Virus genome (UHGV): UHGV-0152227
Source of the DNA: a virus
Length of the DNA stretch: 43,955 nucleotides
Reading direction: 5' to 3' (one strand)
Part shown: positions 7,864 through 9,186 of the stretch, piece by piece
Layout of the letters: every line of letters starts with the position of its first letter
Numbering within the stretch: the first letter of the stretch is position 1
Translations under genes and position numbers: made by a program
The notes under the pieces: generated by a model
What the model saw: the letters and a program-made list of their open reading frames with translations, nothing else
Databases searched by the model: none
Told to the model about the DNA's origin: nothing

Positions 7864-7883
7864 TACTGTATAAATATACAGTT
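7864..7883. promoter_or_regulatory. LexA (SOS) box overlapping a -10-like TATAAAT
   Basis: TACTGTATAAATATACAGTT = CTGT-N8-ACAG, close to the LexA consensus; about 20 bp upstream of the 7903 start. Confidence 0.75.
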
Positions 7884-7902
7884 ATCGTATGGAGAAGATA
7901 AG

Positions 7903-8160
7903 ATGCAGCAGTATCACTATCCACTGGAAGACGGATTTACCGAAAGGATTCACACGCCGGGAGGCGTCAGATCACTGGTGGAGGGATCGCACTTGATGAA
8001 ATTACTCCGGGATCTCGATAAGGATGGATTTAATGTCGATGGCCCACTTGCCGAACTGACTGCACTGATTAACTACGTCACCAGCTCACAGATGTCTATG
8101 CAGGATCTGCAAACACATCTCGACTATTGTGCCGAACAATTACGAAAACAAACCAGATAA
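7903..8160 (+). CDS. Small protein homologous to the shared C-terminal module of the two antirepressors; candidate SOS-controlled antirepressor
   Basis: ATG 7903 with GGAG RBS; 85 aa; shares the Y-PL-G-IH-P-GV-L-E-S-LM-LL-L-DG-V-G-ELT-QD-QTH-Y pattern with the C-termini of the 8476 and 41902 proteins. Confidence 0.6.
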   Translation: MQQYHYPLEDGFTERIHTPGGVRSLVEGSHLMKLLRDLDKDGFNVDGPLAELTALINYVTSSQMSMQDLQTHLDYCAEQLRKQTR

Positions 8161-8163
8161 GGT

Positions 8164-8206
8164 TTGCAATTACCAAGTGGAGTGCTTATATTTACCTTTG
8201 CGGTAA
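8164..8206 (+). promoter_or_regulatory. Promoter (TTGCAA-N17-TATATT) with operator palindrome TTACCTTTGCGGTAA at its start site
   Basis: -35/-10-like hexamers; operator 8192-8206 matches the TTACC-N5-GGTAA family found at other early promoters. Confidence 0.5.
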
Positions 8207-8297
8207 ATTTACATCGCACTCCTCTTGTGCCATAGTAATCGGGTACTGGCAAAATCCAGTGCCGGGATTGGCGTCCCGAGTTACTAAGTGGCGCATA

Positions 8298-8319
8298 CCA
8301 CGCCAGACGTGGTTTTTTT
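8298..8319 (+). terminator. Rho-independent terminator in the leader upstream of the BRO-N antirepressor
   Basis: CCACG-ccaga-CGTGG followed by TTTTTTT. Confidence 0.6.
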
Positions 8320-8475
8320 ATGCGTTAAGCACAGCTATATCCGAATTATGGTGGGCTGGGCAGGGGTCCGAAAGGACGCCGGTACCACTTAGGCCGGTAC
8401 GCCAACCTTGTCCAGTTCACCACCAGTAATTGGCGTTGCGGTGGTGATTAAAATCACTAAGTGGAGATAACCACC

Positions 8476-9186
8476 ATGGCTAATGCTCAAACTGCCATCT
8501 TCAAATTTGAATCTGTTAACCCTATCCGTTCCATCATTATCGATGGCCAACCATGGTTTGTAGCCCAAGACGTTTGTAGTGCGCTGCGTATCCAAAACGT
8601 CACCCAAGCACTTGAAAAACTGGATGATGATGAAAGGTCTATGTTCAACATAGGGCATGAACATCGTGCAATTTTTGACAGCCGAGTAAAAGAGATCAAC
8701 ATCATCTCCGAGTCAGGCCTCTACACACTGATCCTCCGCTGCCGCGACGCAGTGACACCAGGCACTATCCCCTACCGCTTTCGTAAATGGGTTACAGGTG
8801 AGGTTCTTCCTCAGATCCGCCGCACCGGAAGTTACATTAAAAACTCGCTCCCGCAGGAAGAACGCATAAAGATGGTTGCCGACCAGGTTGCAAACGCCAC
8901 AGCATCAGCAGTGATGCAGGCAATGAAGATAGAGAACAAAACCTACAGCGCCCCACTGAAGCCCGGCTACCGTAGCCTGATTCATTCGCCGTCTGGTGTT
9001 CTCGGCCTGACGGAGAACTCACTGCTGATGAATCTGCTGAACCAGTTACAGGAAGACGGGCACGACGTATCGGGCGCGGCGGCGGAGCTGACCACCATGT
9101 TCTGCTACATCGTCGGTGTGAGCAAATGCCTGCGTGATATCCAGACGCACGCGGAGTACATCAACGACAAGGCTGGGTTCTTCTGA
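8476..9186 (+). CDS. Antirepressor, BRO-N domain with shared C-terminal module
   Basis: ATG 8476 with GGAG RBS; BRO-N motifs (FKFESVNPIRSIIIDGQPWFVAQDVCSAL, IISESGLYTLILR, WVTGEVLPQIRRTGSY); C-terminal ~80 aa near-identical to the 41902 protein. Confidence 0.8.
   Translation: MANAQTAIFKFESVNPIRSIIIDGQPWFVAQDVCSALRIQNVTQALEKLDDDERSMFNIGHEHRAIFDSRVKEINIISESGLYTLILRCRDAVTPGTIPYRFRKWVTGEVLPQIRRTGSYIKNSLPQEERIKMVADQVANATASAVMQAMKIENKTYSAPLKPGYRSLIHSPSGVLGLTENSLLMNLLNQLQEDGHDVSGAAAELTTMFCYIVGVSKCLRDIQTHAEYINDKAGFF

Follow-up and report, generated by a model that had tools for sequence, protein, structure and literature searches.

How is a prophage released from a repressor that carries no autopeptidase domain, and why should three of its genes end in the same short module? 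We addressed these questions in UHGV virus genome UHGV-0152227 (43,955 nucleotides [nt], one strand, 5' to 3'; this whole stretch is called the window), which is a phiV10/epsilon15-like (Uetakevirus) prophage of Escherichia coli of the temperate podophage type. An initial annotation, made from the letters alone, had proposed that a standalone protein of 85 amino acids (aa), a BRO-N fusion and a KilA-N/ORF6N fusion form an antirepressor triad. We find that the triad is a known SOS switch with a new, modular, RNA-keyed extension assembled from known parts. The best explanation is that the locus is an immunity-breaking apparatus with one established SOS layer and two RNA-keyed antirepressor layers, which we consider likely. 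The SOS mechanism appears to be the one already published for the orthologous phage SPC32H and is not new here, since it matches the experimentally solved Ant-Rep system of that phage. The region from 7700 to 9300 is 91 to 98% identical to phages HEMP4, TL-2011b, ZX5, and phiV10 and is present in 535 of 5,426 complete E. coli genomes (about 10%).

The SOS layer: LexA box, small antirepressor, and repressor

Upstream of the gene for the 85-aa protein (ant), the sequence TACTGTATAAATATACAGTT at 7864 to 7883 shows two mismatches to the palindromic LexA consensus. It is the sole match with three or fewer mismatches in the 44 kb, and none was expected from 100 shuffles. Scored with a position weight matrix (PWM) based on 20 LexA sites of E. 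coli, it reached 27.0 bits, exceeding every training site (12.1 to 26.7 bits), and the runner-up in the window reached 10.3 bits. The near-consensus LexA box that the initial annotation had placed here is thus confirmed, and it is the only one in the window. Downstream of it, the Shine-Dalgarno (SD) sequence GGAG (7891 to 7894) stands at a distance of 8 nt and the ATG (7903) at 20 nt, and a conserved block lies upstream of it. Boxes that align with it are present in SPC32H, phiV10, TL-2011b, and Tyrion as well as in another five phages of E. coli, and the box is kept across five genera or lineages. In this region, SPC32N and SPC32H differ by one base: the ACAG arm of the SPC32H box reads AAAG in SPC32N, a C-to-A change that is reportedly the mutation which made Ant constitutive and SPC32N virulent-like.

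The box stands in a divergent intergenic region (7708 to 7902) common to ant and the tail-fibre gene, and this position would suit a palindrome that regulates the tail-fibre gene instead of ant, or one that is a chance match. We regard this as highly improbable, given that no chance match is expected, that the palindrome is 20 nt from the ant start codon versus 157 nt from the tail-fibre start, that it is retained in five genera or lineages, and that the homologous SPC32 box carries the point mutation separating SPC32N from SPC32H.

The 85-aa protein matches chain E of PDB 5D50, "Anti-repressor protein" (E = 4e−47, residues 2 to 84 aligned), and is 88% identical to the annotated ant product of Salmonella phage SPC32H (tblastn). 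The 194-aa repressor (Rep) matches chain A of 5D50 and 5D4Z, "Repressor" (E = 4e−42). In agreement with the initial annotation, Pfam placed two helix-turn-helix (HTH) regions in Rep, at residues 21 to 61 and 106 to 147, and gave no Peptidase_S24 match. Secondary literature states that self-cleavage of LexA precedes the production of Ant, which inhibits the repressor through protein-protein contact, and that the tetrameric Ant of SPC32H binds two Rep dimers, breaking the DNA-binding Rep tetramer. In a 2026 preprint, a microcin that damages DNA is reported to induce prophages of the phiV10 species 21- to 47-fold. In the lysogen described here, host LexA would occupy the box and keep the 85-aa Ant off. 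DNA damage would remove LexA and allow Ant to be produced, and the Ant tetramer would then bind Rep dimers and dismantle the DNA-bound Rep tetramer, leading to prophage induction as in SPC32H. This first layer, from LexA to Ant to Rep, can be considered established by orthology. The proposal that SOS induction passes through a LexA-derepressed small antirepressor acting on an uncleavable repressor is therefore supported by the homology of Ant and Rep to those of SPC32H and by the conservation of the box.

The Ant module on different N-terminal domains

The 85-aa protein is 39 to 40% identical to the C termini of the two long proteins, 32 columns of the alignment are invariant, and phrog_450 matches the 85-aa, BRO-N, and ORF6N proteins (E = 9e−48, 4e−36, and 5e−36, respectively). 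The three genes thus do share a C-terminal module of about 80 aa, as first annotated. The N-terminal parts ("heads") of the long proteins match Pfam Bro-N (E = 1e−19, residues 17 to 112) and ORF6N (E = 3e−19, residues 12 to 97), while the module itself has no Pfam match; the PHROG antirepressor families match only the heads. Although a crystal structure of the module exists (5D50), neither Pfam nor NCBIfam has a model for it, and phrog_450 bears the label "unknown function." Because of these missing models and the uninformative PHROG label, the genes or gene parts encoding it (7903 to 8160, 8944 to 9186, and 42379 to 42621) are "hypothetical" in RefSeq.

At the DNA level, the last 80 codons of the two long genes are 97% identical, with seven differences, all synonymous and none nonsynonymous, and the two genes are unrelated upstream of about 8944 and 42379. 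The identity runs on past the stop codons through the hairpin GGCACAGGGATGTGCC, which has GGA in its loop and is kept 9 nt past the stop of both genes. This hairpin may be a terminator or a protein-binding hairpin. It also gave weak partial matches to RsmV, a CsrA/RsmA-sponge family. The BRO-N fusion has a full-length homologue in a Klebsiella phage (53% identity), and the N-terminal 121 aa of the ORF6N fusion are 58% identical to AntB of the lambdoid phage 2851, with unrelated C termini.

Of 50,697 phage records, 35 have the small Ant, 34 the fusion-type module, and 36 Rep, with a further marginal match to Rep. All belong to one and the same set of epsilon15/phiV10-like phages, from Salmonella, Escherichia, Enterobacter, and Klebsiella; the module was found in no lambdoid phage among the records. 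An exhaustive profile search with the module returned just 62 proteins among 1.84 billion representatives. This search was needed to find the fused architectures, since a word-indexed protein search gave only short proteins. The module was found C-terminal to five different heads, namely Bro-N, ORF6N, AntA, Phage_pRha, and, in TL-2011b, P22_AR_N. All residues that are invariant in the alignment of the small-Ant family are retained in the modules of the long proteins. The co-occurrence of Ant and Rep and the exchange of heads make it plausible that the module is a Rep-directed, swappable part, and that the fusions would bind Rep through it. The suggestion that the module is the repressor-contact surface is accordingly plausible, given near-perfect co-occurrence and swapped heads, and would extend to the fused copies by analogy with the small protein.

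The long proteins might not be antirepressors of this Rep at all, which we consider unlikely. The module could merely tetramerise DNA-binding regulators with BRO-N or ORF6N heads, or form mixed tetramers that modulate the small Ant; in another version, the long proteins would be directed at repressors that belong to different prophages of the same cell. Both BRO-N and KilA-N/ORF6N are folds that bind DNA, the Ant of SPC32H is a homotetramer, so that the module bears an oligomerisation surface, and the module is just 39 to 40% identical to the small Ant; antirepressors that act on non-cognate repressors are also documented. On the other hand, among the 50,697 records the module is confined to phages with this Rep family, none of them lambdoid or of another type, the residues invariant in the small-Ant family are all kept in the long modules, and five unrelated heads fit a target-specifying tail better than a generic oligomeriser.

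A C4/isrK cassette before the BRO-N gene

The initial annotation had placed the SOS input of the triad on the LexA box of its smallest member. Neither long gene has a LexA box ahead of it (the next PWM score in the window, 10.3 bits, lies elsewhere), and both stand behind C4-type antisense RNAs that had escaped the first reading. The cassette of the BRO-N gene has the order promoter, a1/b1 decoy (isrK) with terminator, C4 RNA, a2/b2 at the ribosome-binding site, and BRO-N gene. The Rfam isrK model (RF01394) matches 8243 to 8319 with 63.5 bits against a gathering threshold (GA) of 50, and the c4-a1b1 model (RF03163) matches 8230 to 8282 with 43.4 bits, just under its GA of 46.7. The predicted start of the second promoter, near 8243, is position 1 of the isrK model, and the layout of promoters and palindrome (Table 1) is conserved in Tyrion and in the Klebsiella phage.

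The C4 RNA itself lies between the small ant and the BRO-N gene, 48 nt upstream of the BRO-N ATG. Its a' segment CCACUUAG (8385 to 8392), in a hairpin loop, is complementary to CUAAGUGG, which occurs both upstream as a1 and at the BRO-N gene as a2. Its b' segment ACGCCAA (8399 to 8405), single stranded in the minimum free energy (MFE) fold, pairs likewise with UUGGCGU at b1 and b2. The C4 RNA would thus pair through a' and b' with b2 and a2 on the BRO-N ribosome-binding site and block translation, and the upstream a1/b1 RNA, which ends at the terminator, may serve as a decoy that the antisense RNA binds instead. No leader open reading frame (ORF) like icd or orf45 separates the terminator from the BRO-N gene; the only candidate reads ATG CGT TAA. 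An additional C4 site in the 3' region of ant, CCAAGTGG (8175 to 8182), was rejected, as it is unchanged in phiV10 despite the different a' of that phage.

The isrK and c4-a1b1 families overlap on 8230 to 8319. From this overlap it follows that IsrK of Gifsy-1 would be the a1/b1 decoy of a C4-type cassette, and that its "orf45/STnc1160" target region would be a C4.

An sRNA-Xcc1 cassette before the ORF6N gene

The ORF6N gene is preceded, 41 nt upstream, by an RNA of the sRNA-Xcc1 family, and the two RNA segments that follow the C4 logic are present here as well. The a' segment CUUUCGA (41826 to 41832) pairs with UCGAAAG at a1 and a2, and the b' segment GUGUUCA (41835 to 41841) pairs with UGAACAC at b1 and b2. 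These keys correspond to the second hairpin loop and the segment following it, and they co-vary with their targets. Five further sRNA-Xcc1 cassettes, from Stx phages and Aaphi23, all precede antirepressor genes, each with matching upstream and SD-overlapping sites; they carry four further key pairs, which makes five distinct pairs including that of the window. By this pairing, sRNA-Xcc1 would cover the ribosome-binding site of the ORF6N gene and block its translation.

In the literature that we found mentioning sRNA-Xcc1, no C4-type mechanism is given, and the RNA is treated as a virulence-associated sRNA; it has also been noted upstream of symE in integron cassettes. The C4-type mechanism that we propose for it here is supported by covariation, together with the complementarity of loop and target. 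No cross-complementarity of at least 7 nt was found between C4 and the Xcc1 targets, in either direction, and the C4 and sRNA-Xcc1 keys are thus, by their sequences, distinct and non-cross-reacting.

The segment from 41640 to 41900, with the promoter, a1/b1, and sRNA-Xcc1, is 98.4% identical to the lambdoid Stx2a phage F451 (AP012532.1, 4187 to 4430), which implies a recent exchange of regulatory cassettes between unrelated phage types.

Covarying keys and a proposed RNA-keyed immunity

Comparison with relatives shows that the C4 keys and their targets change together. In phiV10 and TL-2011b, a' is CCUUUUAG and a1 and a2 are both CUAAAAGG, which is a coordinated two-base change from the window at a', a1, and a2 alike. 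The Klebsiella phage has a' CCGUUUAG with targets CUAAACGG, a fourth a' allele beyond the three of the E. coli phages, and the Enterobacter phage Tyrion has a' CCUUUGUAG with targets CUACAAAGG, and b' AGACCAA with UUGGUCU at both b1 and b2. Eight E. coli phages whose Rep is 98.5 to 100% identical to that of the window have three a' and two b' alleles between them; of the six combinations that these allow, five were seen, and the targets match the keys in all eight. HEMP4 has a key of the window's type, and ZX5 one of the phiV10 type. Klebsiella and Enterobacter phages have kept the BRO-N::module architecture along with ant, isrK, and C4.

The covariation of loops and targets implies that the RNA locks are under selection, and antisense-RNA control of both long genes is supported by it. 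Because each long antirepressor lies in an antisense-RNA cassette, both would be RNA-keyed and not SOS-keyed. The layout is one Rep-specific tail under one protein lock and two orthogonal RNA locks. We infer from the shared module that the long proteins would inactivate the same Rep. Their most likely role, by analogy with c4/ant in P1/P7, would be to add a second determinant of immunity within a group of phages that have Rep in common. Such a phage, whether incoming or co-resident, could express its Ant if its key differs, and inactivate the common repressor.

Probable Rep operators and a possible coupling of ant to the C4 cassette

The palindrome TTACC-N5-GGTAA is about 20-fold over-represented in the window (14 sites versus 0.71 expected) and also in SPC32H (18 sites versus 0.5 expected). 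Its sites stand at intergenic or promoter positions throughout the prophage. SPC32H, phiV10, TL-2011b, Tyrion, and the Klebsiella phage all have the one at 7812 to 7826 in the same position; there and at 8192 to 8206, the palindromes are kept across genera with constant half-sites and variable spacers. Three palindromes lie between the cro-like gene and rep, and SPC32H likewise has three between these two genes. The scattered sites probably form a Rep regulon, reminiscent of the dispersed operators of P1 C1. The promoter of the Xcc1 cassette has no such site. Since a probable Rep operator sits on the promoters of the C4 cassette, loss of Rep should further open this cassette.

This arrangement suggests another role for the long BRO-N copy, compatible with an immunity-breaking apparatus but different in emphasis. 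The SOS-induced ant mRNA would run into the a1/b1 decoy, titrate C4, and unlock BRO-N::Ant in a feed-forward induction lock, and the loss of Rep would also open the cassette's own promoters. We hold this cascade to be possible, at rather less than even chances. No terminator-like site was found on the plus strand between 8160 and 8297, so that the SOS-induced ant mRNA would carry a C4-binding decoy; the cassette starts 5 to 60 nt after ant in the window, phiV10, Tyrion, and the Klebsiella phage; and the cassette promoters carry the operator-like site. The behaviour of Gifsy-1 points the same way, as translation of anrP rises about 140-fold when IsrK is provided in trans, and peroxide induces isrK. 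However, TL-2011b and EC.W1-9 have insertions of about 1.1 kb with opposite-strand genes between ant and the cassette, and the coupling of the two is therefore not conserved. Furthermore, the small Ant alone suffices for induction of SPC32H, and a purely internal cascade leaves the diversity of C4 keys among Rep-identical phages unexplained.

A wider reading joins these elements: one Rep-specific "warhead" may be deployed three times, under LexA, C4, and sRNA-Xcc1 locks, having been grafted onto captured immI-type cassettes, with the SOS-induced ant mRNA also unlocking the C4 copy. The cassettes would come from unrelated lineages, being P1-like, Stx-lambdoid-like, and, in TL-2011b, P22-like. 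We put this forward as a tentative proposal.

Points that weigh against an immunity-breaking apparatus

Several observations weigh against this reading of the locus. The first concerns the ant promoter: the promoter scan gave no sigma-70 match of at least 9/12 over the LexA box. Of the initial claim that the box overlaps the −10 region, the box itself therefore stands and the overlap is not borne out by the scan, although it is plausible. The second concerns the partner of Ant. Rep is 42% identical to the Rep of SPC32H (190 aa), with 53% in the N-terminal domain and 39% in the C-terminal domain, versus 88% for Ant. The C-terminal domain is the part to which Ant reportedly binds. As Rep is far more diverged from its SPC32H counterpart than Ant, the binding of the two is assumed here. 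The antirepressor (7903 to 8160) is far more conserved than its presumed target (36719 to 37303).

The third point is that TTACC-N5-GGTAA is the Rep operator only probably, judged by its position and enrichment. If Rep represses the cassette promoters, C4 may also not be present in the lysogen, where P1/P7-style immunity needs it. Finally, the long genes are dispensable: the BRO-N gene of phiV10 (3274 to 3953) is frameshifted inside the module, giving ORFs of 194 and 29 aa, in a viable temperate phage, and SPC32H and epsilon15 have no long antirepressor genes. In contrast to phiV10, the BRO-N gene is intact in TL-2011b and in the window. The exact ORF6N chimera was found at a coverage of at least 80% in none of the 5,426 complete E. 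coli genomes, and it may be a recent recombinant.

The frameshift in phiV10 and the absence of the chimera from these genomes would also suit long copies that are evolutionary debris without a selected function in the prophage, whether left by mosaic recombination or decaying as morons, as would the 98% identity of the ORF6N cassette to the Stx2a phage segment, which implies recent exchange. We find this very unlikely. Neither ORF is interrupted, each has its SD sequence and a complete RNA cassette, and their modules differ by seven synonymous and no nonsynonymous changes. The BRO-N::Ant architecture is kept with its RNA cassette in Klebsiella phages at 53% identity, and the covariation of loops and targets implies continuing selection on the control RNA.

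Comparison with known systems

SPC32H (PDB 5D50 and 5D4Z) is the closest system. As in the window, it has an orthologous small Ant (88%), a homologous Rep (42%), a LexA box before ant, and the same TTACC-N5-GGTAA palindromes; its ant is divergent from the tailspike gene, and that of the window is in the same place, divergent from the tail-fibre gene. SPC32H differs in having the small Ant only, without the C4/isrK cassette, the long fusions, or the Xcc1 cassette.

The immI operon of P1/P7 reportedly consists of the c4 antisense RNA, icd, and ant; translation of the leader ORF icd is what C4 reportedly targets directly, and RNase P reportedly releases C4 from its precursor. The window resembles it in having a C4 family RNA (RF01695) upstream of an antirepressor gene, on the same strand and presumably co-transcribed, with a'/b' segments, a1/b1 upstream, and a2/b2 on the ribosome-binding site, and in the different C4 keys with compensatory targets among phages of the same primary repressor. 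In contrast to P1, the window has no icd-like leader ORF, and a2 lies directly on the ant SD. Its antirepressor, a BRO-N head with an SPC32H-type tail, is unrelated to the Ant of P1. A strong terminator after a1/b1, a podovirus as the host phage, and a second, LexA-controlled antirepressor also set the window apart.

A similar order is found in Gifsy-1, where isrK, orf45 (STnc1160), and anrP follow each other; IsrK in trans raises translation of the antirepressor about 140-fold, and peroxide induces isrK (Hershko-Shalev et al. 2016, PMC4825925). Shared with the window are an isrK family RNA with terminator, then a processed RNA and an antirepressor gene, and read-through transcription. In Gifsy-1, orf45 is translationally coupled to the antirepressor, whereas the window has no equivalent of orf45, its downstream protein ends in the Ant module, and the locus adjoins the LexA-controlled ant.

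Tum of phage 186, GfoA/GfhA/GftA of the Gifsy phages, and AntC of N15 are LexA-repressed small antirepressors that bind uncleavable repressors and form a reversible switch (Shearwin 1998; Lemire 2011, PMC3121763). The initial annotation had likened the SOS route to 186 Tum and the Gifsy phages. The logic is indeed the same, but these proteins are functional analogues only: the Pfam, PHROG, NCBIfam, and PDB searches returned just the SPC32H family and no 186 Tum or GfoA/GftA relative of Ant, with no direct pairwise comparison made, and the true relative is SPC32H. The stoichiometry also differs, being A2B2 in Gifsy versus a tetramer and two dimers in SPC32H.

A likeness to the P22 immI region (arc, sar, ant) appears in the sister phage TL-2011b, whose third copy of the module has a P22_AR_N head. 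This gene (31060 to 32244) is preceded by an Arc-like ORF of 55 aa and an opposite-strand match to sar (44.8 bits, GA 43); the Arc-like ORF had no Pfam match and a weak PHROG match. By this gene order, the third copy of TL-2011b is in all appearance a P22 immI-type cassette grafted onto the Ant module. The cassette is absent from the window, whose third copy uses an ORF6N head and the sRNA-Xcc1 cassette instead.

The APSE phages of Hamiltonella combine both arrangements within a single podophage genome, with c4 and isrK preceding a BRO-N gene and sRNA-Xcc1 preceding an ORF6N gene (Rouil et al. 2020). The window has the same pairing of c4/isrK with BRO-N and of sRNA-Xcc1 with ORF6N, and Rouil et al. 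(2020) gave no mechanism for sRNA-Xcc1. In general, the long proteins of the window fit the antirepressors with BRO-N or KilA-N (ORF6N) heads, which have such an N-terminal head and a variable C terminus.

Features of the locus and neighbouring genes

The features discussed above are listed in Table 1. Downstream of the BRO-N gene, an operator-like palindrome (9259 to 9273) precedes a 59-aa ORF (9334 to 9513, phrog_6685), which overlaps a 190-aa ORF with a borderline Pfam match to the YafO toxin (25.8 bits versus a cut-off of 25). The region from 9259 to 10033 may be a Rep-controlled toxin-like moron, and it is absent from SPC32H. The prophage also carries a tRNA gene at 27048 to 27121 (73 bits); SPC32H has an annotated tRNA-Arg and TL-2011b a tRNA match.

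TABLE 1 Coordinates of the regulatory elements and antirepressor genes in the window and of sRNA-Xcc1 in comparison segments
Feature	Coordinates	Strand	Basis or remarks
Probable Rep operator, TTACC-N5-GGT(G/A)A palindrome, in the ant/tail-fibre divergent region upstream of the LexA box	7812-7826	.	Enrichment, conservation
LexA box TACTGTATAAATATACAGTT	7864-7883	.	Consensus scan, PWM, conservation in relatives
Small antirepressor Ant, 85 aa, SD GGAG 7891-7894	7903-8160	+	PDB 5D50_E, tblastn to SPC32H ant, phrog_450
Tandem promoter-like sites	8164-8192 (TTGCAA-17-TATATT); 8208-8236 (TTTACA-17-(TG)CATAGT)	+	Promoter scan
Rep-operator-like palindrome TTACCTTTGCGGTAA between both promoter-like sites	8192-8206	+	Motif scan
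a1/b1 decoy, isrK-like RNA	8230-8320	+	b1 8268-8274, a1 8284-8291, terminator stem 8297-8313 and T-run
C4 antisense RNA	8344-8427	+	Rfam RF01695, 66 bits versus GA 45; MFE fold; target covariation
C4 targets b2 (8430-8436) and a2 (8457-8464)	8430-8466	+	a2 overlaps BRO-N SD GGAG 8463-8466
BRO-N::Ant-module fusion, 236 aa, module from about 8944	8476-9186	+	Pfam Bro-N, phrog_450 on residues 153-234
Hairpin GGCACAGGGATGTGCC after the BRO-N gene stop	9195-9210; identical copy at 42631-42646	+	DNA comparison, fold
Operator-like palindromes between the cro-like gene and rep (three)	36601-36615, 36633-36647, 36649-36663	.	Motif scan
Repressor Rep, 194 aa, two HTH domains, no S24 peptidase	36719-37303	+	Pfam, PDB 5D50_A
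Near-consensus promoter TTGACA-18-TATATT (41656-41685), b1 (41700-41706), a1 (41711-41717), terminator (41724-41751)	41656-41751	+	isrK analogue of the second (sRNA-Xcc1) cassette
sRNA-Xcc1 family RNA, C4-type antisense (proposed)	41771-41860	+	Rfam RF02221, 64.2 bits versus GA 53; loop/target covariation
Xcc1 targets b2 (41860-41866) and a2 (41884-41890)	41860-41892	+	a2 overlaps ORF6N SD AAGGA 41888-41892
ORF6N::Ant-module fusion, 239 aa, module from about 42379	41902-42621	+	Pfam ORF6N, phrog_1760 full length, phrog_450 on residues 156-237
TTACC-N5-GGTAA 15-bp sites (positions)	7812, 8192, 9259, 10509, 26711, 29838, 29856, 34300, 34362, 36264, 36601, 36633, 36649, 37361, 37423	.	Motif scan
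sRNA-Xcc1 in comparison segments (Stx phages, Aaphi23)	L005 1316-1404, 1855-1940; L006 and L008 1322-1405; L007 1293-1377		

Implications for phage immunity

The sole addition of the SOS part is that the phiV10-like prophages of E. coli are placed within the paradigm of SPC32H. For the modular antirepressors, the same tail on five heads, facing one repressor family, offers a natural test of which part of such proteins specifies the target. The analysis also offers a mechanism for sRNA-Xcc1 and ties isrK to the a1/b1 decoy of C4. If this mechanism is true, sRNA-Xcc1 would be a translational lock of the C4 type, encoded in cis with the toxic or antirepressor genes that it controls. Rep-identical phages have at least five key combinations, and these suggest, by analogy, an RNA-keyed heteroimmunity in the style of P1/P7 in a different phage group. 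Should the proposal of one tail under three locks also be true, RNA-keyed anti-immunity weapons among phages with identical Rep would drive the diversification of the a'/b' keys.

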